Shown here in pieces: positions 1,830 to 13,212 of a stretch of DNA of 64,000 nucleotides; within the stretch, counting starts at the first letter, position 1, and each line of letters begins with the position of its first letter. The notes beneath the pieces were generated by a model. It was not told the origin of the DNA. It worked only from the letters and a program-made list of their open reading frames with translations, and did not search any database. The stretch lies in NCBI GenBank assembly GCA_038231435.1, contig JBBRLJ010000001.1, positions 96,001 to 160,000 of the forward strand, given 5' to 3'. A program made the translations under genes and the position numbers. The DNA comes from Planctomycetota bacterium (GTDB taxonomy: Bacteria > Planctomycetota > UBA11346).

Positions 1830-1970
1830 AGGCTCGCATGATCCCGACGGTGTCGCCCGGCCTAGCGAATTGCCCGTGCACCATCTCCGGCGCGCGCGAA
1901 TGCCACTGACCGTTTCATTCGTCCCATGGACCATCGCACGGACCCGGTCGGGCACGCCAGCAGCCACGCT

Positions 1971-1996
1971 GTGAACTTCGCCACGCGGCATGCGTT
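1971..1996 (+). promoter_or_regulatory. candidate ECF-sigma promoter (GTGAAC-N16-CGTT) for the A2M-like gene
   Basis: AAC and CGT elements at 16-nt spacing, just upstream of the GGAGG SD (2002-2006) and ATG 2016. Confidence 0.35.
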
Positions 1997-2015
1997 CTCC
2001 TGGAGGGGCGAGAGC

Positions 2016-5000
2016 ATGGGACGCCGCACTGGGATCATCGCGACGGTCGCCGTCTGCATCGCCATGCTGGCGATCGCCGTGGCGCGTTTCCACACCACGC
2101 GTCCGGACGCTGACGGAGCGAGCGCGACGGGCGCGGGCTGGCGAGCGGAACCGACCGAGCTGGTGGCGCGCATCGAGCATCTCGCGGACGCTGGAGAAGC
2201 CGACGCGGCAGCGAGCGTGCTCGCGCAGCTGCTCAAGCGTGACGGCATCGCCGCAACCGGGCTCGACGATCGCGCGCGCATGGCGGCAGCGCGCGGCTAC
2301 CTGAAGGCGAAGCGCACCGATGAGGCCCTCGCGCAGGTCGCGGCCATCCCCTGGGCGGACAAGAGCCGGGCGGTCGCGGCGCAGATCCTCGGCCTCGAAT
2401 TGGCGATACGTTGGCAAGGTCTGTTCGATCGCGATGGCCACCTGGCCCCGGCGGCGCTCGGCCCGCGTTTGTCCCCCGAGGCTCCGCAAGGCCTGCCCAA
2501 GGGCGCGTGGCTGCAGCGCTGGGAGCACTACCGCGCGCTCGCCGAACTCATCGATCGCGGCGCACACATGGTTTCTTCCGAAGGTGGCGCGGTCGCGATG
2601 CCGGCGTCGGCCGCGATGATGCAACTCGCCCGCCACGATCACGGGGATCTCAGCGAATCGGATTTCGCTGCGGCGATGGGCCCTACGCGCGACTGGCAGC
2701 CCGAGCTGGCCCTGGCGATGTGCCGGCTGCGCCTGCAGGAGTACGCCATCCCCGAGGCGATCGCGGCGGCCGAGGCGCTGTGGTCGGGGCATCCCGCCAG
2801 TGGCGAGGCTGCCGAGGCGTACCATCTGCTGCGTGTTTGGCAGCTCGAGCGCGGCCTGGCCTCGGGACACCTGCCGTTGTGGCGGTATCCCGAGGTGGAC
2901 GCTCGGCTCGACGCCCTGGCGACCATCTATAAAGACGCGGCCAGAAGCGCGGATATCGCGGTGGCGAGGATCCAGGAGCTCAACCAATGGGGCATGGCGA
3001 GCGCTATTGCTGCGCAGGCCGCGAAGGCCGCGAAGCCATTGCTGGATGCGGTCGAGACCGCGATCCCAACGGCCGAGATCGCGAGGAACGAGGATGCGAT
3101 CGACGACCGGCCCGAGCGGCGGGTCTTCGCCCTGGCGCTGGCATGGAACGGGCTGGAGTTGGCCAGCGAACGGCGCGAGGTGCCGCTCGGCGAACCCGCC
3201 ACGCTGACCATCACCTCAGTGCATCGCGGCCCGCACACCGTGCGCATCCATCGCCTCCCCAACCGCAAGACCTGGGATGTGATGTGCACCAAACCATCCA
3301 ACGCGTTGCTGCCAGCGGAAGCGGTCCACACCAGGGAACTGCAGGGTGGAGACTGGTCATCCCTCGGCGAGCCCTGCGCGATGCCCTTCAACGTGGATGG
3401 CCTGGGCGAGGGCTTCTATGTCGCCACCGTGGCCGTGCGCGGATGTCCGACCACGGTGCTCACGGGCTTCGTGGTCGTGGACCCGGACCTGTACGTGATC
3501 GCTGGACGCGACGAGGTGGTCACCTGGGTGGTCAGCCGCGCCAGCGGCAAACAGAAGTCCGGCGAACCCCTGCGCGCGACGATGAGCCTGGTGCGCGACC
3601 CAGCGCAAGCGGCTGGATCGGCATGGGACGGCGCAGACCCGGTGTGGCGTGCGGGCTTCACCGAGGCCTTCACCGATGAGCCGTCCGCCGCATTCGTGAC
3701 CGACGCGCTACGACCGGTGTTCGCAGCTGGGCGCACGGCCGGCCTCGCGGCCTCGGCCACTGATCCCCCCTTCTCCGCCGAGCTGGATGCGGTGAGTGGC
3801 GAGGATGGCATCGGCCGCGTGGCGCTGCCCGTGAGACTGCGCGACCGTTCCTACACAGTGGCCGTCTCGATCTCGCGCCCCGATGTGATGGTCAGGCGCG
3901 AGGCCCGCGTAGGACCGGCGGCAGATTGGACCGCGAAGGCCGTGGCGTGGGCGGACCGGCCCCTGGTGCGTCCGGGAGAGACCGTGCATTGGAAGATGCT
4001 GATGCGCGATCTCGATGGCTACAGCTACCGGCTGCCGGTGGGCGAGATCGAGCTGACTCTGCGCCTCGACGACCAGGTGCTGTGGAGTGGAACCCAGGCG
4101 ATCACGGATGCCGGCACGGTGGGCGGAGAGCTCGCCATCCCGCCGGGAGCCGCCGAGGGCCGGCTCACCGTATCAGCGGGAACGTCCGGGCCGCGCCACG
4201 CGCTCGCCGGCATCGAACGGGCGGCGTTGCCGAGCGTGCGCTATGACGTGATCGAGGACGAGACGTCGCGCTTGCGCGCCGGGGAATCCATCCGCACCGG
4301 CATCGGCATCCATGACGCCGCCGGTGAGCCCATCGCCGGCGTCGAAGTCACGTGCTCGGTCACCGCGTACCTCGACGGCGTGGCCACGCCGTGCCCGCAG
4401 CCTGGCATAACCACCAGCGACGTCGCGGGTATTGCCCATGTGGTGATCGCCACCATCCCCGATGCCCAGGCGCTGTACCGCGCATATTTCTCGTTCACCG
4501 TCGATCACCATCGCTACCGCATCGAGCGCTCATGGCAGGCGAGCACCTTTCCCTTCCCCCTCGAGGCGGTGGTGCGCAACCGCCAGCTCTCGGCCGTGGA
4601 TTCGGTGCGCGTCGAGCTGCGCTTCCCGGCCGAGGCGCAGGTGACGGTGCGCCTGGTGCGTGGCGAGCAGGCACTAGGCGAGGATCAGCATCCGCGCGGC
4701 GCCTGGCCGCTGTGGTGCGAAGCGCACGTGCCGCTGGATCGTTCGACGCAGAACGCCGACGCGGTCGAGGTATCTACCGCGGTCGCGGGAGGCGGCAGGG
4801 CGCGCCTGCGCATCCCGATCACCATTGCGCCGCCACCGATATCCGCCGGTGCGCCCGAGGTGCAGCTCTCGCCGGACCGGCTGCGCGTCGAACCGGAGCA
4901 GACGCTGGGACTGACTCTCGGCGTGAATGTTCCGGGACGCGATGTGCTGCTCGTCGGCGGCTCGCGCTCGGTGCAGTTGCTCCGCACCACCCGCCTGGAC

Positions 5001-8000
5001 ACGCCGGCGCACCGAGTGGAGGTGGCGATCGCCAGCGACTGGGCGCCCAACATCTCGCTGCAGGCGGTCGCCTACCTTCCCATCCGCGGATTCACGGCGA
5101 CATCGCGCCAGGACATCGAAGTCAGCCCGGTCGACCGCCTGCTGCGCGTGGTGGTCACTCCCGAGCGCGAGGACTACCATCCTGGTGACGACGTCGCGGC
5201 GAGCGTGCTGATCAGCGATTGGAAGGGCAGGCCCGCGGGCGGGGTATCAGTCAGCATCGGCGTGGTCAATGAGCTCATCTACCAGCTCGCCGATGACGCC
5301 ACGCCCGACCTGTGGACCTATTTCTATGGTTACCGGCGCGCGTACGGCTTGGTCGAGGGCACGGCCACCGCACTGCCCTTTCCGTCTGCGTCGTTGTGGC
5401 ACGGCGTCGCGTGGCGCTGGCAGTCGCCCGAGGGCTTCGCCTGCATCGGCTCGGAGATGGCGCTCTCAGCGATGAACGGCGCGCGCTACGGCGGCGGTCG
5501 CGCGCGGTCGATCTCGAGGGGCGGCGGTGCGTCGGCGAGCGAAGCGGCCATGCTCGCTTTGGAATCGGGCGTCGCCATCGCCTGGGTCGGCGACCTGCGC
5601 ACCGACGCGGATGGGCGGGCGACGATACGCTTCACCATGCCGGCGAACACCGGCCGTTTCCGCTGCACCGCCCGCGCCAGCTCCACCGACGCGCAGCTGA
5701 TGGTCGGCGAGGTGCGCATGGGCATCACCAGCCGTCAACCCTTCGGCTGCGCGCTACGCCTGCCCGAGACCGCGCGCGAGGGAGACGTGGTGCAGGCCGA
5801 ACTGGCGCTCGCCAGCTACGACGACGCGCCGCTGGCGCTGGCGCTGGAATTGCCGGACGGCTCGCGGCGCGAACTCACGTTGCCGGGGCGCGCCCGGCGC
5901 GCGCTCGCAGTGCCGGTGCGCATCGCCGCAGGAGACGGCGAGATACGCGTCGCTGGCGGACAGGTCGGCCGCGTCGTCACCCTGCGCGCATCCGCGGTGG
6001 CGGTGGCTGGCGCAGCCAAGCTCGAGACCCGCATCGTGGCGGCAGCGCACTGCCTGGTGATCGCCGCCGGCATACCACGCACCTGGTCGGGATTGGTCAG
6101 CGCGGGCGCGGATGGCTCCATCAGCCTACCGTGGCCGGTGCCCGAGGGCGCGGCGCTACGCGTGCGCTGTCGCGCTTGGCCAGATGCCTCGGCGCGACGC
6201 GACGCGCTCGCCGCCAGCGCGCGCGCGGGCGTACCCGCGGGAGCGGTCGCCGCCTTGGCATGGCTCGAAGCGCCCGCCGGCGAACGGCGCGCACGAGCCC
6301 TGGCGACGTGCTGGTCCACGCTCGACAAGTACATCCCTTCGGCGCTCGCGCGCCAAGCCGCCGCTCGCCGTGGCGAGGCCTTCGGATCCCTGGGCGCCGT
6401 ACCCGACGGCGTCGACGGCGATTGGCTGCTCGCGCGCGGTCGCTTCGATGGCCTGCTGCTCGGTGCGCCGCGCGAACGCGGCCATGTCGCCAGCGCGGGC
6501 AGTGATCGGATCGCGGCGGTGGCCATAGCGCTCGCCGAGAGTTGGCCCGAGGGCCATGCCTGGTGGCCTGGCATCCTCCAGGAGCTGGACCGCGCCAGCG
6601 ATGGCCAGGGCACAGATCCAACGCTGTTCAGTCTCGCGCTCGGCATCGACGCGGCGCGCATGGCGGGCGATGAGTCCGCCCGTACCCGCTTGGCGGCCCG
6701 GCTCGGGCGCCTGCCGTGGACCTGCGAGTTCGATCAAGCCCTGGCCCTGGTATCCATCCCGTCGGGACCGGGATCGATCGGCGGCGCGGTCCTCGTCCAG
6801 GATCGCGCGGGAGTCGGTGCAGCCGCCGCGACCGACATCGCCACCCTCGCCACCATCGCCACCCTCGACGCAGGCGCCGCGAGCGAGTGGCTCGGCGTCG
6901 CCGGTCCGTCGTTCACGTTGTCATCGACGCCAGGCGCGCTCGCGGATCTGGAAGTGCTGATGCAGACACCGGCACCGCTGCAAGCGAAGTCCGTCCAGCT
7001 CAGCGCCACCTTCTACGAGCGCTGCGAGGACGGCGGCTACACCGCCGTCCCCGCCGGTCGAGCGCTCTGGCCCGGACGTCCGCTGGCGATGGCGATCGCA
7101 TCGCCACAGATGGCCGAGGTGGTGCTGCGCCTGCCGAGCCTGCTGCGCATCGCCCCCGAGGGCGGCGAGTTCCTCATCGTCGATGCCGAGCGGTCGTCGA
7201 TCAGGATCGACGGAGACATCCGCCTGGCCGCGAGCCTGCTCGAGGGTGGCGATCGTGATGGCGCCCTCGCCAGTTTCTTCTCCATGTGCCAGCGCAATCC
7301 GGTGCTGCGGACAGGCGTGGGCCAACGCCTGCCGGTGCATGGAGCGGATTCCAAAGCCTTGATCTCCGCGGATGGAACCCTGTCGTTAAGCGTCTGGCCC
7401 GGACAGCCCACGTTCATCGCGCTCGCGACCTCCAGCGAGGGAACGGCGGCCTGGCCGCCGCTCGCCATCACTGGCACCATGCCAGGCGCTCAAGAACGCC
7501 AGCAGGAGCTTCCCAGCATCGTGGTGGGTGTCGGCGACATCGCGCCCCTAGCAGCACCGGAGATCGGCCTACCTGCGCGCGCACTCGCACGTCTGCGCCA
7601 CCTGGCCGCCGATGCGTCCACCGAGGACCTGAGCGCGCTGCTGCTCCAGATGCAGGACCTCGATGTCGACGACGATCCCCGCATCGCGCTGCTCGACCGG
7701 CACGCGGCGCACGATCCAGCGGCGCTGCTGGCGCATCCCCTCTCTGGGGTCCCGGGACACTGGTCGACGGCCGCGCTGCGCGCCTGGAGCGACGGCGACT
7801 TGATGCTGGCGGTGGACACTCCTACTTTGAAGCGCTGGTTGAGCCTCATGGATGGGGGCAGGAACCGCGCGACCGGGCTACAAGATGTTCCGGATGCCGG
7901 AGCGGAACTGGTCGCGGGGGTGGATTGGACCGCCGAGCTCGCACACCCCACCATGCGCACGTTGATCCTGCTCGCCGAGGCCGATGCCGCGCTGCGCAGG

Positions 8001-8636
8001 GAGATCGAGGTGCGCCTGCCGACCTCGATGGCGACGGCGCCGCGCGTAGTCTCGACCGCCAGGGACTGGTTCAGGCGTCTTGGCGCGCTCGGTCTCGCCC
8101 CGGCGCGGGACTACGACACCTGGGTCTGGGAGCAGGAGCTCGATGCGGATCTGCAGTCGACACTGGGATATCCAAGCGGGGTCGACGGCTGGGTCGCCTT
8201 CCTGCGCACACGCTGCGGGCTCGAGGTGCGCATCGGCACGGGGGTACCTGTCGAGATCCCCGGCATCGACCAGGTCTCGGGCCCGCGGCTGGGCGCATCC
8301 TTGCTCACGACGTGCGGATATGCCCTGCAACGTGTGGGCCCCGCGCTCGAGATTCGTCCGGCGCGGGGATTCATCCTCCAGGAACACCTCCTGACCATCA
8401 GCATCGATGTCACCGACGAACGCCTCGATACGGTTGTCGCCGACCTCGATACGCTGCTCGCCAATCGCGGCCTGCCGCCGCTGGAGGTGGACCCCGCATT
8501 CCATGGCGGCGATACGCGAGTCACGTTCGCCTGCAAGGAAGCGGACTGGCGGAACGCGGTGACATCGTTGGCGAGCGTGATCGGCGCGACGGTTGCATTC
8601 GACGGGAATCATGCGGCCCTGCGCCACGCGCATTGA
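2016..8636 (+). CDS. giant alpha-2-macroglobulin-like (MG2/A2M domain) envelope protein
   Basis: N-terminal hydrophobic anchor; MG2 signature ADRPLVRPGETVHWK; REDYHPGDDV; A2M segment WVGDLRTDADGRATIRFTMPANTGRFRCTARA; GGAGG SD; no CxEQ thioester seen. Confidence 0.8.
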   Translation: MGRRTGIIATVAVCIAMLAIAVARFHTTRPDADGASATGAGWRAEPTELVARIEHLADAGEADAAASVLAQLLKRDGIAATGLDDRARMAAARGYLKAKRTDEALAQVAAIPWADKSRAVAAQILGLELAIRWQGLFDRDGHLAPAALGPRLSPEAPQGLPKGAWLQRWEHYRALAELIDRGAHMVSSEGGAVAMPASAAMMQLARHDHGDLSESDFAAAMGPTRDWQPELALAMCRLRLQEYAIPEAIAAAEALWSGHPASGEAAEAYHLLRVWQLERGLASGHLPLWRYPEVDARLDALATIYKDAARSADIAVARIQELNQWGMASAIAAQAAKAAKPLLDAVETAIPTAEIARNEDAIDDRPERRVFALALAWNGLELASERREVPLGEPATLTITSVHRGPHTVRIHRLPNRKTWDVMCTKPSNALLPAEAVHTRELQGGDWSSLGEPCAMPFNVDGLGEGFYVATVAVRGCPTTVLTGFVVVDPDLYVIAGRDEVVTWVVSRASGKQKSGEPLRATMSLVRDPAQAAGSAWDGADPVWRAGFTEAFTDEPSAAFVTDALRPVFAAGRTAGLAASATDPPFSAELDAVSGEDGIGRVALPVRLRDRSYTVAVSISRPDVMVRREARVGPAADWTAKAVAWADRPLVRPGETVHWKMLMRDLDGYSYRLPVGEIELTLRLDDQVLWSGTQAITDAGTVGGELAIPPGAAEGRLTVSAGTSGPRHALAGIERAALPSVRYDVIEDETSRLRAGESIRTGIGIHDAAGEPIAGVEVTCSVTAYLDGVATPCPQPGITTSDVAGIAHVVIATIPDAQALYRAYFSFTVDHHRYRIERSWQASTFPFPLEAVVRNRQLSAVDSVRVELRFPAEAQVTVRLVRGEQALGEDQHPRGAWPLWCEAHVPLDRSTQNADAVEVSTAVAGGGRARLRIPITIAPPPISAGAPEVQLSPDRLRVEPEQTLGLTLGVNVPGRDVLLVGGSRSVQLLRTTRLDTPAHRVEVAIASDWAPNISLQAVAYLPIRGFTATSRQDIEVSPVDRLLRVVVTPEREDYHPGDDVAASVLISDWKGRPAGGVSVSIGVVNELIYQLADDATPDLWTYFYGYRRAYGLVEGTATALPFPSASLWHGVAWRWQSPEGFACIGSEMALSAMNGARYGGGRARSISRGGGASASEAAMLALESGVAIAWVGDLRTDADGRATIRFTMPANTGRFRCTARASSTDAQLMVGEVRMGITSRQPFGCALRLPETAREGDVVQAELALASYDDAPLALALELPDGSRRELTLPGRARRALAVPVRIAAGDGEIRVAGGQVGRVVTLRASAVAVAGAAKLETRIVAAAHCLVIAAGIPRTWSGLVSAGADGSISLPWPVPEGAALRVRCRAWPDASARRDALAASARAGVPAGAVAALAWLEAPAGERRARALATCWSTLDKYIPSALARQAAARRGEAFGSLGAVPDGVDGDWLLARGRFDGLLLGAPRERGHVASAGSDRIAAVAIALAESWPEGHAWWPGILQELDRASDGQGTDPTLFSLALGIDAARMAGDESARTRLAARLGRLPWTCEFDQALALVSIPSGPGSIGGAVLVQDRAGVGAAAATDIATLATIATLDAGAASEWLGVAGPSFTLSSTPGALADLEVLMQTPAPLQAKSVQLSATFYERCEDGGYTAVPAGRALWPGRPLAMAIASPQMAEVVLRLPSLLRIAPEGGEFLIVDAERSSIRIDGDIRLAASLLEGGDRDGALASFFSMCQRNPVLRTGVGQRLPVHGADSKALISADGTLSLSVWPGQPTFIALATSSEGTAAWPPLAITGTMPGAQERQQELPSIVVGVGDIAPLAAPEIGLPARALARLRHLAADASTEDLSALLLQMQDLDVDDDPRIALLDRHAAHDPAALLAHPLSGVPGHWSTAALRAWSDGDLMLAVDTPTLKRWLSLMDGGRNRATGLQDVPDAGAELVAGVDWTAELAHPTMRTLILLAEADAALRREIEVRLPTSMATAPRVVSTARDWFRRLGALGLAPARDYDTWVWEQELDADLQSTLGYPSGVDGWVAFLRTRCGLEVRIGTGVPVEIPGIDQVSGPRLGASLLTTCGYALQRVGPALEIRPARGFILQEHLLTISIDVTDERLDTVVADLDTLLANRGLPPLEVDPAFHGGDTRVTFACKEADWRNAVTSLASVIGATVAFDGNHAALRHAH

Positions 8637-8653
8637 GGCGCGACCAGTCCCCA

Positions 8654-8681
8654 TTGACGTCACGTCCACGTCCGGCACGAT
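8654..8681 (+). promoter_or_regulatory. candidate sigma70 promoter TTGACG-N16-CACGAT
   Basis: Near-consensus -35 and partial -10 ahead of the structured leader of the ankyrin gene. Confidence 0.45.
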
Positions 8682-8699
8682 CGCCAGTGCGCGAAAGGG

Positions 8700-8817
8700 C
8701 GCACCCCGTCCGCGGGCAGGACCGAGTCCACCTTTCCCGACAATCCGACGGTAGCGGTCCCGCAACCTCCCTTTCTGCCCCCTCTGCGGACACGTGGGCA
8801 AGATAAAGGAGGTCGCC
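8700..8817 (+). ncRNA. candidate structured cis-regulatory 5' leader (SD-sequestering hairpin plus pseudoknot/alternative pairing)
   Basis: GGACCG 8719-8724 / CGGTCC 8755-8760; ACCTCCCTTTCTGCCC 8765-8780 / GGGCAAGATAAAGGAGGT 8796-8813 covers the SD; loop GCGGAC 8786-8791 is complementary to GTCCGC 8708-8713. Confidence 0.55.
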
Positions 8818-10080
8818 ATGGCGACCCGTCTGCTTCCCGACCATCCCCATCTCGATCAGCTCAAGCGTCAGGCCAAGGAGCTGCTGCACGATCACCGGGC
8901 GGGCGATCCGGCGGCCTTCTCCCTCATCGCCGAATTCCTGCCCCCGCTGTCGCGGCCGCTCGCGCTCGCCGATGCGCAGCACGCGATCGCGCGGCGCTAT
9001 TCATTCCGCTCATGGGCGAAGCTCAAGGAGTTCATCGACACCTACGACGCCTCTGGCGTCTCGCCTGCGGCCGCGCGCCTGCGGCAGGCGATCGACGCCG
9101 ACCAGATCGCGCTGATGGCGCGCCTGCTCGACGATGAACCCGAGCTGATCGACGAGCCGGTGGCACGCGCGAAGATCCGCTACCGCAACCAGCGACCGCT
9201 GACCTACGCGTGCCAGAGCAACCACCCACGCGCGGTCGCGTTGCTGCTCGAACGCGGCGCCGATCCGGCGGCCGACGGATACCTTGCGGTGGCACGCGCG
9301 TCGATGAACGACGGCCAGCTGCCCTGCCTCGAGCTGCTGTTCGCGCGTGGGCTCGATCCGAACCTTGAGGTCTACGACTGGGGACCGCTGCTGCTCTATC
9401 CGTGCGAGTGCCTGGCCCCGGGCGTGATCCGCTTCCTGCTCGAGCGCGGCGCCGATCCGAACCGCTCCGATCCGCAGGCCCGCTGCACCCAGACTCCGCT
9501 GGCGATGGTGATGGATACCTACGCGCGGTCGCCAGCCCAGGCACGCTGCCTCGAGGCGCTGATCGCTGGCGGGGCGAGGTTCGAGGATTCGCCGGTGATG
9601 GACGTGCATCGCAACCGCCTCGACGCGCTGGCGCGGCGGCTCGATGCCGAACCGGGCCTCGTCCACCGGCGGTTCCCAGGCCTGGACTATGGCCGCACCG
9701 CCCACCGCGGCCTGACCGCGTCCGGCGGCACGCTGCTGCACGTGGCGGCGGAATTCTGCGTGGTGGAGGTCGCGAGACTGCTGCTGTCGCGCGGCGCCGA
9801 CGTCGATGCCCGAGCGGAGATCGATGCCGACGGGCATGGCGGCCAGACGCCGCTCTTCCACGCGGCATCGCACTACCACGATTGGGGAGTGGAGATGGTC
9901 GGACTGCTGCTCGAGCACCGCACCGATACCAGCACGCGCTGCACGCTGCGCGGCCACATCGAGCATCCCGGCGAATACGTGAGCTGCACCGCCCTCGGGT
10001 ATGCGCAGCGCTTTCCGCCCGAACGCGCCGACTCCGATCCGACCTTGGCGCTGCTGCGCGGGGCATGCGCACCCGCCTGA
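8818..10080 (+). CDS. ankyrin repeat protein with N-terminal LPxxPxLxQLKRQAKELL helical domain
   Basis: Multiple ankyrin repeats (LLLERGADP, GGTLLHVAAE, GQTPLFHAA); strong SD AAGGAGGT at 8806-8813. Confidence 0.88.
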   Translation: MATRLLPDHPHLDQLKRQAKELLHDHRAGDPAAFSLIAEFLPPLSRPLALADAQHAIARRYSFRSWAKLKEFIDTYDASGVSPAAARLRQAIDADQIALMARLLDDEPELIDEPVARAKIRYRNQRPLTYACQSNHPRAVALLLERGADPAADGYLAVARASMNDGQLPCLELLFARGLDPNLEVYDWGPLLLYPCECLAPGVIRFLLERGADPNRSDPQARCTQTPLAMVMDTYARSPAQARCLEALIAGGARFEDSPVMDVHRNRLDALARRLDAEPGLVHRRFPGLDYGRTAHRGLTASGGTLLHVAAEFCVVEVARLLLSRGADVDARAEIDADGHGGQTPLFHAASHYHDWGVEMVGLLLEHRTDTSTRCTLRGHIEHPGEYVSCTALGYAQRFPPERADSDPTLALLRGACAPA

Positions 10081-10081
10081 A

Positions 10082-10115
10082 CGCTCCCTCGACCCGAGAA
10101 CGGGTCGAGGGAGCG
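10082..10115 (+). terminator. perfect 15-bp hairpin after the ankyrin gene (terminator or RNA-stability element)
   Basis: CGCTCCCTCGACCCG-AGAA-CGGGTCGAGGGAGCG directly after the stop codon; no U-tract. Confidence 0.55.
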
Positions 10116-10163
10116 ATGGAGTCGCGCTTGGAGGAGGGCCGCCGATGCCATACTCGCGGTTCG

Positions 10164-11141
10164 ATGCCCCTGCTTACCTTGCGCCCCACGCTCGTCCTGC
10201 TCATCGCTGCTCTCGCCGGCTGCGGCGGGCATTCCGCCCTCGACCAGCCCGGGTGGCATCAGGGCGTGGTGGAGCACGACCAACGCGAGCTCGGCTTCGA
10301 GATCGCCGGCACGGTACGGTCGGTGACGGTGACGCGCGGCGCGCCGGTCGACCGCGACCAGGCGCTCGCCGAACTCGATGACCGGCTCGAAACCGCAGCG
10401 ATCGCGCAACGCGAGGCCGAGGTGCGTGTCGCCGAGGCGCGGCTCGCGCTCGTCGCCGCCGGTCCGCGCGCCCAGGATATCGCGATCGCGCGCGCCCAGG
10501 CCGAGTCGGCCGGAGTCTCCGCCGAGGTCGCTGGCGCCGAATTCGAGCGCCAGCGGGCCATCGCCGCGCAGAAGGCCCTGTCGGCGAGCGAGCTCGACCT
10601 GGCGCGCGGACGCCTGGCCGAGGCCACCGCCAACCGTGTCTCCGCCGAGCAGCGTCTGGCCACGGCGGTCGAAGGCGCACGGCCCGAGGAGAAGGCCGAG
10701 GCACAGGCCGCGCTCGAGGCCGCCCAGGCCACACTCGCCTTCGAGCGCGAGCGACTCGCCCGCCACTGGCTGCATGCGCCGATCGCCGGCCGCGTGGTCG
10801 AGGTCGCCGTCGATCCGGGCGAAGCCGCGCTGCCGGGGCGCGTGGTGTTGACCATTGCCGACACGCGCCACCCCTACATCGACGCCTATGTTCCCGAGAA
10901 GCAGCTCGCCGGCCTCGCCATCGGCGGCCACGCCCAAGCGCGCATCGACGGCGATGACCGCGTCTTCTCGGGCACCATCGAGGACATCGGCCGCCAGCTC
11001 GAGTACACGCCGCGCTTCCTGTTCAGCCCCGCCGATCGGCCGAACCTGGTGATGCGCGTGCGCGTGCGCGTCGACGATGCCGACGAACGCCTGCATGCAG
11101 GCGTGCCCGCCGCCGTGCGCTTCGGCGACGACGTGAAATGA
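10164..11141 (+). CDS. HlyD-family periplasmic adaptor subunit (YbhG-like), probable lipoprotein
   Basis: Lipobox-like LAGC, lipoyl halves (IAGTV, APIAGRV), coiled coil, EYTPRFL motif; coupled to ABC genes. Confidence 0.88.
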   Translation: MPLLTLRPTLVLLIAALAGCGGHSALDQPGWHQGVVEHDQRELGFEIAGTVRSVTVTRGAPVDRDQALAELDDRLETAAIAQREAEVRVAEARLALVAAGPRAQDIAIARAQAESAGVSAEVAGAEFERQRAIAAQKALSASELDLARGRLAEATANRVSAEQRLATAVEGARPEEKAEAQAALEAAQATLAFERERLARHWLHAPIAGRVVEVAVDPGEAALPGRVVLTIADTRHPYIDAYVPEKQLAGLAIGGHAQARIDGDDRVFSGTIEDIGRQLEYTPRFLFSPADRPNLVMRVRVRVDDADERLHAGVPAAVRFGDDVK

Positions 11142-12085
11142 CCGCCGGCGCGGGCGAGAGCGTGGTGGCAACCCGCGCCCTGTCCCGGCGCTTCGGCGAC
11201 CTGGTGGCGGTGCGCGGCATCGACCTCGACATCCGTCGTGGCGAGGTATTCGGGGTGCTCGGGCCCAATGGCGCCGGGAAATCGACGCTCATCCGCATGC
11301 TGTGCGGGATCCTCGCGCCCAGCTCAGGATCCGGCACAGTACTCGGCCTGGACGTGGCGACGCAATCGGAGCGTATCAAGGAGCGGATCGGCTACATGTC
11401 GCAGCGCTTCTCGCTCTACGAGGATCTCACCGTCGAGGAGAACCTGCGCTTCTACGCTGGCCTCTACGGCCTGCCATTCATCGGCAAGCGGCCGCAGGTG
11501 CACGAGACCCTCGCCCGCATCGGCCTCCAGGACCGCCGATCACAGCTGGCCGGCACGCTTTCGGGAGGATGGAAGCAGCGCCTGGCGCTGGCCTGCTCCA
11601 CCATCCATTCGCCGCCGCTGCTGTTTCTCGACGAGCCGACCGCTGGTGTCGATCCGGTGAGCCGCCGTGCCTTCTGGGACCAGATCCACCGCATCGCGCA
11701 CGACGGCACCACCGTGCTGGTCACCACCCACTACATGGACGAGGCCGAACGCTGCCACCGCATCGCGTTCATCTTCCGCGGCATGCTCATGGACGTCGGT
11801 ACGCCGGATGAGGTGGTCGATCGGCGCAGACTGTCGGTGTGCGAGATCGAATCTGGCGATCCCGCGGCCGCGGCCGCGGTGCTCTCGGCGACCGCGGGGA
11901 TCGCCGATGTCTCGTTCTTCGGGCGTAGCCTGCGCGTCACCGCGCGCGACGGCGTCGATGCCGCCGCGTCAGCGGTCACGGCACTGGCGGCGGCAGGGAT
12001 CTCGACGCCGGCGCCCCGGCCGCGTCGCGCAACGGTCGAGGATGCGTTCATCTCGCTGGTGCGCACCGAGGAACGCACGTCATGA
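11138..12085 (+). CDS. ABC transporter ATP-binding protein (YbhF-like)
   Basis: Walker A GPNGAGKS, signature LSGGWKQR, Walker B LLFLDEPT, H-loop TTHYM. Confidence 0.93.
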   Translation: MTAGAGESVVATRALSRRFGDLVAVRGIDLDIRRGEVFGVLGPNGAGKSTLIRMLCGILAPSSGSGTVLGLDVATQSERIKERIGYMSQRFSLYEDLTVEENLRFYAGLYGLPFIGKRPQVHETLARIGLQDRRSQLAGTLSGGWKQRLALACSTIHSPPLLFLDEPTAGVDPVSRRAFWDQIHRIAHDGTTVLVTTHYMDEAERCHRIAFIFRGMLMDVGTPDEVVDRRRLSVCEIESGDPAAAAAVLSATAGIADVSFFGRSLRVTARDGVDAAASAVTALAAAGISTPAPRPRRATVEDAFISLVRTEERTS

Positions 12086-13212
12086 GGCGGTTGCTCGCCG
12101 TCGCCTGGAAGGAGATGCGCCAGCTGATGCGCGATCGCCTCACCGCGGGCATGATGCTGGGCATCCCGGCGCTGCAGTTCCTGCTCTTCGGCTACGCTAT
12201 CAACACCGATGTGCGGCACCTGCCGCTCGCGGTGCTCGATCGCGATCGCACGCCCGCGTCGCGCGAACTCGCGCGGGCCCTGACCGTGACCGGCTACTTC
12301 GACATCGCCGGCGCCGTCGAGGACGACGCCCAGGTCGAACGCGCCCTGCGCATCGGCGGAGCGCGCGCCGCGCTGGTCATCCTGCCCGGATTCTCAGCGG
12401 ATCTCGCATCCGGACGCGGAGCGCGCGCACAGCTGGTGGTGGACGGCACAGACCCCCTCACCGTCACCAGCGCGAGCAACGCCGCGGTTGGATTGGCCTC
12501 GGCGCGCTCGGTGGCGCTGATGGTCCAGCGCCAGGCGGTCAGCGGCGGAGCAGCCGGAGGATCGGCGCAGCCGGCATTGACGATCGAACCGACGGTGTGG
12601 TACAACCCCGAGCTGCGCACCGCCGTCTACATCGTGCCCGGACTGGTGGGGGTGATCCTCACCCTGACCATGGTGATGATGACGGCGATGGCGATCGCGC
12701 GCGAGCGCGAACGCGGCACGCTCGAGGCGTTGGTGGTGTCTCCGGTCCGGCGCATCGAGCTGATCGGCGGCAAGATCCTCCCTTACATCGTGCTCGGCTA
12801 TCTGCAGATGACGCTGGTCCTGCTGCTCGGCTGGTGGCTCTTCGACATCCCGCTCGCGCGCCTAGGCTCGCTCTATCTCGCGGCGCTGCTGTTCATCGCC
12901 GACAACCTCTCGATCGGCCTGCTGTTCTCGACCCTCGCGAGCACCCAGGGCCAGGCGATGCAGATGTCGTTCTTCTTCCTGCTGCCCAACATCCTGCTCA
13001 GCGGCTTCATGTTCCCGCTCGCTGGCATGCCTGCCCCGATCGCGGCGGTGGCCGAGATCCTGCCGCTGACGCATTTCCTGCGCATCGTGCGCGGGCTCGA
13101 GCTCAAGGGCGCGACGCTCCTCGACTTCGGCGGCGACCTGCTGGCATTGGCCGTGGCGCTCACCGTGCTGGTGGCGCTGAGCACATGGCGCTTCCAGAAG
13201 CGCTTGGCCTGA
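12082..13212 (+). CDS. ABC-2 type transporter permease (YbhR/YbhS-like)
   Basis: LFGYAINTDV, WYNPEL, IARERERGTLE, LSGFMFP motifs; ATGA overlap with ATPase. Confidence 0.92.
   Translation: MRRLLAVAWKEMRQLMRDRLTAGMMLGIPALQFLLFGYAINTDVRHLPLAVLDRDRTPASRELARALTVTGYFDIAGAVEDDAQVERALRIGGARAALVILPGFSADLASGRGARAQLVVDGTDPLTVTSASNAAVGLASARSVALMVQRQAVSGGAAGGSAQPALTIEPTVWYNPELRTAVYIVPGLVGVILTLTMVMMTAMAIARERERGTLEALVVSPVRRIELIGGKILPYIVLGYLQMTLVLLLGWWLFDIPLARLGSLYLAALLFIADNLSIGLLFSTLASTQGQAMQMSFFFLLPNILLSGFMFPLAGMPAPIAAVAEILPLTHFLRIVRGLELKGATLLDFGGDLLALAVALTVLVALSTWRFQKRLA

Follow-up and report, generated by a model that had tools for sequence, protein, structure and literature searches.

A covarying leader RNA with two pseudoknots pairs the Shine-Dalgarno sequence of genes that share one N-terminal domain and is probably a new translation-control switch

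In Escherichia coli rpsO/S15 and phage T4 gene 32, a pseudoknotted leader lies at the ribosome-binding site of the very mRNA that encodes its binder. The SAM-II, preQ1-II, preQ1-III and guanidine-III riboswitches combine a compact pseudoknot fold with conserved joining nucleotides and a Shine-Dalgarno (SD) sequence that is paired in the structure, and the ZTP riboswitch (pfl, RF01750) is built of two sub-domains with a variable linker and a bridging pseudoknot. In the BglG/SacY antiterminators, an N-terminal CAT domain with RNA-binding activity acts on the RAT RNA, which lies in the leader of the operon encoding it. Here we describe a leader RNA with likenesses to each of these systems, found in a 64,000-nt stretch of a Planctomycetota genome (contig JBBRLJ010000001.1, positions 96,001 to 160,000; hereafter the window) just upstream of a gene for a 420-residue ankyrin-repeat protein with a small N-terminal domain (N-domain). 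Comparison of homologous loci gives good support to a real, conserved and covarying structured RNA, one member of a widespread family of about 125-140 nt. The family is uncatalogued and probably a new translation-control switch.

The intergenic DNA between the end of an alpha-2-macroglobulin-like gene (8636) and the ATG of the ankyrin gene (8818) measures 181 nt. The match of our covariance model R1 (see below) to this leader is the only one in the 5.2-Mb genome. The leader and its parts are as follows, a pair being called double-changed where both of its sides have changed among relatives.

8679-8820, plus strand: whole leader RNA motif, which ends with the start codon (R1, 60.5 bits, E 2e-10)
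8688-8703, plus strand: P1 hairpin, 8688-8692 paired with 8699-8703 around the loop GAAAGG (4 of 5 pairs double-changed in 80 leaders)
8696-8733, plus strand: pseudoknot PK2, A8696, G8697 and G8698 of the P1 loop with C8731, C8732 and T8733 (column covariation)
8708-8791, plus strand: pseudoknot PK1, GTCCGC (8708-8713) with GCGGAC (8786-8791) in the P4 loop (5 of 6 pairs double-changed)
8719-8729, plus strand: P2 hairpin GGAC-CGA-GTCC, 8719-8722 with 8726-8729 (4 of 4 pairs double-changed; 99.4% paired)
8734-8760, plus strand: variable linker, holding the CGGTCC of a proposed stem A (alignments)
8761-8815, plus strand: P3, the anti-SD strand ACCTCC-C-TTT (8765-8774) with AAAGGAGGT (8805-8813), enclosing P4 (sequence and covariation)
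8776-8800, plus strand: P4, TGCCCC (8776-8781) with G8794 and GGGCA (8796-8800), its loop bearing a PK1 strand (5 of 5 pairs double-changed; 98% paired)
8805-8813, plus strand: SD sequence AAAGGAGGT, 4 nt before the ATG at 8818 (read from sequence)

The base runs that make up P3 and P4 are ACCTCC (8765-8770) with GGAGGT (8808-8813), TTT (8772-8774) with AAA (8805-8807), and TGCCC (8776-8780) with GGGCA (8796-8800). Taken as a single sequence, the leader folds only modestly better than chance, with a minimum free energy (MFE) of -61.4 kcal/mol and a z of -1.74; 7 of 200 shuffles fold at least as well. In most leaders, the 5′ strand of PK1 is also part of a perfect palindrome, TCCGCGGA (8709-8716 in the window), which could let two molecules pair with each other or fold back into a local hairpin, as it does in the window MFE fold.

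DNA similarity searches with the leader against its own genome and 48 family genomes returned chance matches only (15-52 nt, E 0.001 or weaker), and the RNA family was reached only via the upstream regions of protein homologues. An alignment of 20 homologues led to 160 loci from reference genomes and metagenomes, to which 8 from the window's phylum were added. Filtering by tblastn took these 168 loci to 163 on the plus strand and 146 that reach the N-terminus (query start ≤ 25); 145 of these had a start-codon candidate and 139 had 200 nt upstream, giving 140 upstream regions with the window. Of these, 137/140 carry TCCGCGG (median position -102) together with GCGGA (median -35). The three exceptions are a compensated variant, GTTCGC/GCGAAC (L138), a single mismatch (L085) and a deletion (L058). 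Carrier records are labelled as metagenome-assembled genomes (MAGs) of Acidobacteriota, Opitutales, Verrucomicrobiia, Gammaproteobacteria, Pseudomonadota, Rhizomicrobium, Chthonomonadaceae and Dormiibacterota, all of them bin labels that may be wrong. At phylum level the labels also include Verrucomicrobiota and Armatimonadota, and the leader is found in the window's own phylum. Cultured carriers are Acidicapsa dinghuensis 4GSKX, Acidobacteria bacterium AB60 and Methylosinus sp. C49, in the last case on plasmid pMSC49b. Among protein relatives at 52-61% identity (P0002-P0006), DNA was available only for the short metagenome contig L167, the source of the nearest such protein, and a same-genus copy (L002) is cut before the N-terminus. 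L167 and the window copy have divergent traits in common, including a linker longer than in most relatives.

Across the family, P1 has the consensus GCGY-loop-RCGC and is followed by a joining strand with GUCCGC and by GGAAA before P2. After P2 come ACCY and the variable linker. P3 pairs GCG-A-ACCUUCUUUC with GAAAGGAGGU-CGC, contains the SD sequence and stops a few bases before the start codon. Inside it, P4 pairs GCCCG with CGGGC and presents GCGGAC in its loop. An exact form of this consensus pattern had 0 matches in viral contigs.

RNAalifold on the MAFFT alignment returned the pseudoknot helix and a fragment only, and the structure was therefore drawn up manually and judged by counting pairs. 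In the MAFFT alignment of 132 distinct leaders, paired cells make up 94.5%, and changes on both sides occur at 18 of 33 pairs (79 cells). These values are reached by 0/500 shuffles (here and below a count inflated by related sequences and not a probability), and slid controls are 40-50% paired. R1 was built from 58 diverse leaders, comprising 20 chosen for divergence and a greedy set below 86% identity, with L058 and L084 excluded. The R1 alignment of 80 leaders, paralogues included, has 94.1% paired cells and double changes at 29 of 33 pairs (147 cells), again with 0/500 shuffles reaching these values. In P3, 8/10 of the core pairs and all three outer pairs are double-changed. The sequence-only reading of this locus, made before any homologue had been compared, had proposed a structured leader, and had placed the SD sequence within a stem B, equivalent to P3 and P4; the comparison bears out the former, and the latter is kept through compensatory changes.

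Both pseudoknots covary as well. PK1, which that reading had also proposed from GTCCGC and GCGGAC, lies outside the R1 model and is 99% paired; its independent compensated variants are GTTCGC/GCGAAC, GTCCAC/GTGGAC (twice), GTCTGC/GCAGAC, ATCCGC/GCGGAT and GACTCAC/GTGAGTC. PK2, between RGG in the P1 loop and CCY after P2, was found post hoc by an all-against-all column scan. In it, 97.1% of cells are paired and 23 cells carry double changes (0/500 shuffles); one of its pairs is AU in 47 leaders, GC in 18 and GU in 10. A further candidate, an anti-sequestor pairing of GAAAGGG with TTCTTTC, was set aside as speculation: both strands vary too little for a test, and changes such as GGACAGGG are uncompensated.

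The same alignments speak to an earlier suggestion that the switch consists of a competition between PK1 and a long-range stem A, GGACCG (8719-8724) with CGGTCC (8755-8760). Stem A does appear in the single-sequence MFE fold of the window. Its 3′ half, however, lies in the variable linker, with no counterpart in L167 or the other aligned leaders, and its 5′ half forms the conserved and covarying local hairpin P2 (GGAC-CGA-GTCC, 8719-8729) instead. Stem A is thus absent from the family, and we consider a switch based on it highly improbable.

We then asked how far the fold hides the ribosome-binding site. In nested-structure ensembles, the probability that the SD sequence is unpaired has a median of 0.003, compared with 0.42 when the upstream part is shuffled, and it falls below 0.05 in 52/76 leaders but in 0/76 shuffled controls (4 of the 80 leaders, without a recognisable SD string, were skipped). 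For the window the value is 0.22. Folded alone, the P3/P4 domain reaches -24 to -28 kcal/mol, with -23.9 kcal/mol in the window. A T tract is absent after P3, and control would therefore act on translation, not termination. Two features expected of riboswitches are thus present: a structured domain backed by covariation, and an expression platform that includes the SD sequence.

Such strong default sequestration would also suit control by temperature, by a shared trans-acting protein or small RNA, or by the ribosome, or a leader that serves as a structural ribonucleoprotein partner without switching. The palindrome TCCGCGGA, together with an SD-like GGAAAGG that in the consensus is able to pair with the anti-SD strand, could be read in the same way. 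Variants in the GGAAAGG segment are uncompensated, however, and simple thermometers need neither two conserved pseudoknots nor invariant joining bases. Nothing indicates a particular trans factor, and these readings leave unexplained the strict link with the N-domain that we describe next. We regard them as unlikely.

RNA-only searches covered 1 + 5 + 150 + 20 genomes. All 35 distinct RNA matches (35/35) lie directly upstream, on the same strand, of a match to the N-domain profile. Conversely, 37/45 N-domain genes in those genomes have the full RNA, 2/45 have a partial or marginal one and 6/45 have none. The six genes without RNA are weaker domain matches (E 1e-14 to 2e-4); the basic motif LKKQAK is lost in 4 of them and in the gene with a marginal RNA in G142, which offers a weak lead.

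The association is seen in each set of genomes. R1 has one match in the window genome and 13 in the five other genomes, corresponding one-to-one to one and 13 domain genes; at L224, it was a domain search that placed the N-domain directly after the RNA. The 151 genomes of the window's phylum hold 13 RNA matches, all adjoining the domain, and 20 domain genes. Of these genes, 13/20 have the RNA, G159 adds a rearranged copy found with filters off, and 6/20, which are weaker matches, have none or only a marginal RNA. In 21 Acidicapsa relatives there are 12 RNA matches, all adjoining the domain, and 15 domain genes; here, G444 yields an extra copy with filters off (GUUCGC/GCGAAC), one gene has the 5′ half only and one has none.

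What follows the N-domain differs from gene to gene. The RNA-preceded proteins include ankyrin proteins of 396 to more than 500 residues and two glyoxalase/bleomycin-binding-like proteins of 216-218 residues, and on plasmid pMSC49b of Methylosinus sp. C49 the RNA (57.1 bits) precedes the hypothetical protein WP_161915291.1. The RNA thus tracks the N-terminal domain of about 85 residues and not ankyrin repeats as such. Open reading frame (ORF) calls at 26 loci place the neighbouring genes on differing strands and at differing distances, which gives no evidence of a shared operon.

Some genomes carry variant arrangements. In an Opitutales MAG (G429, that of L046), contig C6 holds three leader-plus-domain genes within 14 kb (139480-153600); the one of the three that was scanned encodes a small glyoxalase/bleomycin-binding-like protein, and the PK1 sequences differ and are compensated. 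L265 (G432:C14) has the 5′ domain without P3/P4, and L261 (G142:C160) shows an SD hairpin resembling P3/P4 and lacks the 5′ domain. These half-leaders may be decayed or simplified versions.

We propose that translation of these genes is autoregulated through the N-domain, a reading to which we assign a probability of about 0.5. The transcript would fold into P1, P2 and an SD-pairing P3 that encloses P4, with PK1 joining the P1-P2 joining strand to the P4 loop and PK2 linking the P1 loop with the CCY that follows P2. This closed fold would make the ribosome-binding site double-stranded and so hold translation down. The most likely effector would be the gene's own product, whose four-helix N-domain might attach to the knotted 5′ region of the leader and either stabilise the closed form or release it. 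The result would be autogenous control of translation, in which we infer both the direction of regulation and the binding of the protein. The exclusive two-way association between RNA and domain, whatever the fusion partner, favours autoregulation, which predicts a tie of this kind. An RNA at the ribosome-binding site that co-occurs with the gene of its proposed binder, as found here (35/35 and 37/45), is typical of autogenous operators and not usual for riboswitches.

Several observations weigh against this proposal. Adjacency in DNA, duplication and swaps of 3′ parts could keep RNA and domain side by side even if the two never interact. The high stability of P3 on its own makes a repressor seem hardly necessary, and the logic could be one of activation. 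The window copy is divergent, scoring 60.5 bits compared with up to 141.9 in the family, and no recognisable RNA-binding fold emerged for the N-domain from fold searches with Foldseek (no match at E ≤ 0.001) and VIA (best Z 3.7). Furthermore, hardly any variation is seen in the unpaired nucleotides, either across phyla or among same-genome paralogues. Invariant unpaired bases are typical of small-molecule aptamers, and paralogues that share them would cross-regulate.

This last point also speaks for a small-molecule or ion riboswitch, in which a double-pseudoknot aptamer would govern P3 as its expression platform and the N-domain would be tied to the biology of the ligand. Such an aptamer would show unpaired nucleotides conserved over several phyla, in front of proteins only 35-45% identical, and the same unpaired bases in paralogues of one genome, as is the case here. 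The intricate tertiary architecture with its two covarying pseudoknots also fits, and the SD-pairing platform resembles those of translational riboswitches. However, riboswitch classes that control unrelated gene families have a metabolic theme in common, whereas all 35 RNAs precede genes for one domain, and we saw no transporter or biosynthetic gene behind the RNA. The lack of an evident shared operon at the 26 loci and of any matching Rfam class argues in the same direction. A riboswitch is, in our view, the less probable reading, but the main and a serious rival to autoregulation.

With regard to known RNA classes, a search of positions 8300-9200 of the window against Rfam 15 (E ≤ 10) gave three chance-level matches elsewhere and none on the leader, and a search of 11 related loci (E ≤ 1) gave no match on any leader. 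The sequence-only reading had been unable to place the RNA in a known Rfam family, and this check agrees with it; the families without a match to the leader include SAM-II (RF00521), preQ1-II (RF01054) and ZTP (RF01750). Two resemblances were considered and rejected. The helix order, compared by topology only, would not fit a double-pseudoknot ribozyme like that of hepatitis delta virus. A likeness by eye to signal recognition particle RNA, RNase P and the 23S GTPase centre is met by a P2 loop that is unconserved among paralogues and by the absence of an Rfam match. In the literature covered, which leaves subscription journals outside, we found no description of the leader RNA or of the N-terminal domain, PF20066 (see below) included.

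The N-domain has the signature LPxRPxLEQLKKQAK ... AQLVIAREYGFxSWPKL over about 85 residues. An AlphaFold2 model of residues 1-86 predicts four helices (predicted local distance difference test score, pLDDT, 84.5). The domain has no match in Pfam, NCBIfam or PDB sequences, and in the ESM Atlas only unnamed clusters were found, with scores below 0.9. Its profile matches 9,992 representative clusters at 50% identity with E ≤ 0.001, and 5,674 at 1e-10. It almost always occupies residues 1-90, in proteins of 99-1047 residues. In many of these proteins the profile match is split in two. Close to the C-terminus of P0151 the AQ..IAREYGF.SW half occurs a second time, and that half can thus recur alone.

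Among the best 150 representatives, 124 were scanned for families, short ones being left out: Ank was found in 50, PF20066 in 12, Clp_N, FliG_C and LRR (leucine-rich repeat) in 3 each and the ClpX zinc finger in 2. The 50/124 with Ank agree with the sequence-only reading, in which this N-terminal domain recurs on diverse ankyrin proteins. The window protein itself has no match to PF20066 (Glyoxalase_8) at E ≤ 0.01. The N-terminal residues of its relatives align to positions 4-67 of that model, with only one above the cut-off, and model positions 5-57 correspond to the N-domain. The N-terminal third of PF20066 is thus the same domain as on the ankyrin proteins, and all that Pfam has of it is an unrecognised portion of a composite model.

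This range of partners allows a broader speculation, to which we give little weight: that the leader and N-domain form a portable, self-contained feedback cassette that bacteria of many phyla place before stoichiometric binders, including ankyrin, LRR, bleomycin-binding-like glyoxalase, Clp_N, ClpX zinc finger and FliG_C proteins. Free protein would bind its own leader via the N-domain and lock the ribosome-binding site, whereas protein with its C-terminal part occupied by the target would not, and synthesis would track the demand for the binder.

A candidate promoter lies ahead of the leader.

8654-8681, plus strand: promoter-like TTGACG (8654-8659), 16-nt spacer and CACGAT (8676-8681) (putative)

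The sequence TTGACG-N16-CACGAT is present where the sequence-only reading had located it. TTGACG fits the consensus at 5/6 positions; a consensus promoter scan lists no site at 8654-8681 because CACGAT fits TATAAT at only 3/6. In the leader alignment, CACGAT aligns with TAnnAT of relatives. In 106/137 leaders, a TAnnnT with TG before it (T 84%, G 82%) is found 32-52 nt ahead of the PK1 strand, such that the conserved element of the relatives would be an extended -10 (TGnTAnnnT). We found no conserved -35 across the 137 leaders, although the window copy itself has a good one. The transcript probably starts just before P1.

The gene behind the leader, and the hairpin that follows it, are arranged as follows.

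8818-10080, plus strand: ankyrin gene, 420 residues, N-terminal domain followed by ankyrin repeats (Pfam Ank families)
8818-9075, plus strand: coding sequence of the N-terminal four-helix domain, residues 1-86 (domain profile match E 6.9e-27)
10082-10115, plus strand: 15-bp hairpin after the stop codon, without a T tract (read from sequence)

ATG 8818 was taken as the start because the closest homologues share the beginning MAT(R/Q)LLP; the stop codon ends at 10080. In Pfam, the 420-residue protein matches only ankyrin repeats (Ank 73.2 bits, Ank_2 71 bits), passing the gathering score for PF00023 and PF12796, and so qualifies as an ankyrin-repeat protein. Its homologues number 2593 among 8000 scored candidates, the best at 61% identity. 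In a full-length AlphaFold2-type model (pLDDT 92.6; predicted template modelling score, pTM, 0.88), the N-domain is predicted to pack confidently against the repeats. An alignment of orthologues of about 400 residues has invariant Cys196-Glu197, Tyr235, Arg237, His308, Glu312 and Tyr395 among the repeats. Invariant residues of this kind are unusual for a pure scaffold and hint at a binding or catalytic site.

The perfect 15-bp hairpin noted earlier at the gene end is indeed there: 10082-10096 pairs with 10101-10115 around the loop AGAA, followed by GATGGAGT. It lacks the T run that accompanies the G+C-rich hairpin of an intrinsic terminator and is absent from the terminator scan list. Downstream of it (about 10146-13212, plus strand), the translations of three ORFs resemble an HlyD-like membrane-fusion protein, an ABC ATPase (GPNGAGKST) and an ABC-2-type permease. 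The upstream neighbour (1926-8636, plus strand) encodes a 2236-residue alpha-2-macroglobulin-like protein with MG2, A2M and bait-region domains; we saw no link between this gene and the ankyrin gene at other loci.

If our reading is correct, the leader would represent a broad new class of structured regulatory RNA with two pseudoknots. To our knowledge, few RNA regulators are known in Acidobacteriota, Planctomycetota and Verrucomicrobiota. The leader would further open a first route to the function of a very large protein domain that has no name and, should the cassette speculation hold, would point to a general module for sensing at the protein level, used by thousands of protein families. 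The strict pairing of RNA and domain raises a testable question, namely whether a small N-terminal domain can act as a transferable autoregulatory RNA-binding tag.

Of the known systems, the leaders of rpsO/S15 and T4 gene 32 resemble the window leader in that the RNA is specific to one protein family. Unlike in those cases, the window product is neither ribosomal nor of a known nucleic-acid-binding fold, its binding being only proposed, and the same leader-plus-domain unit heads proteins with unrelated C-terminal parts. The SAM-II, preQ1-II, preQ1-III and guanidine-III riboswitches share the pseudoknot fold, conserved joining nucleotides and paired SD sequence; the window RNA is larger than these, at about 125 nt with four helices and two pseudoknots, is tied to one protein domain and not to a metabolic theme, and has no match in Rfam 15. 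The ZTP riboswitch is alike in its two sub-domains, variable linker and bridging pseudoknot; its model RF01750, however, has no match at the window (E ≤ 10) or at the 11 loci (E ≤ 1), and the gene context here is not that of purine or folate metabolism. Finally, whereas BglG and SacY act on transcription termination, the RNA described here pairs the SD sequence, and the two systems have no sequence or fold similarity. As in BglG/SacY, though, a small N-terminal domain is combined with variable sensing or binding domains, and what would be its cognate RNA lies in its own leader.

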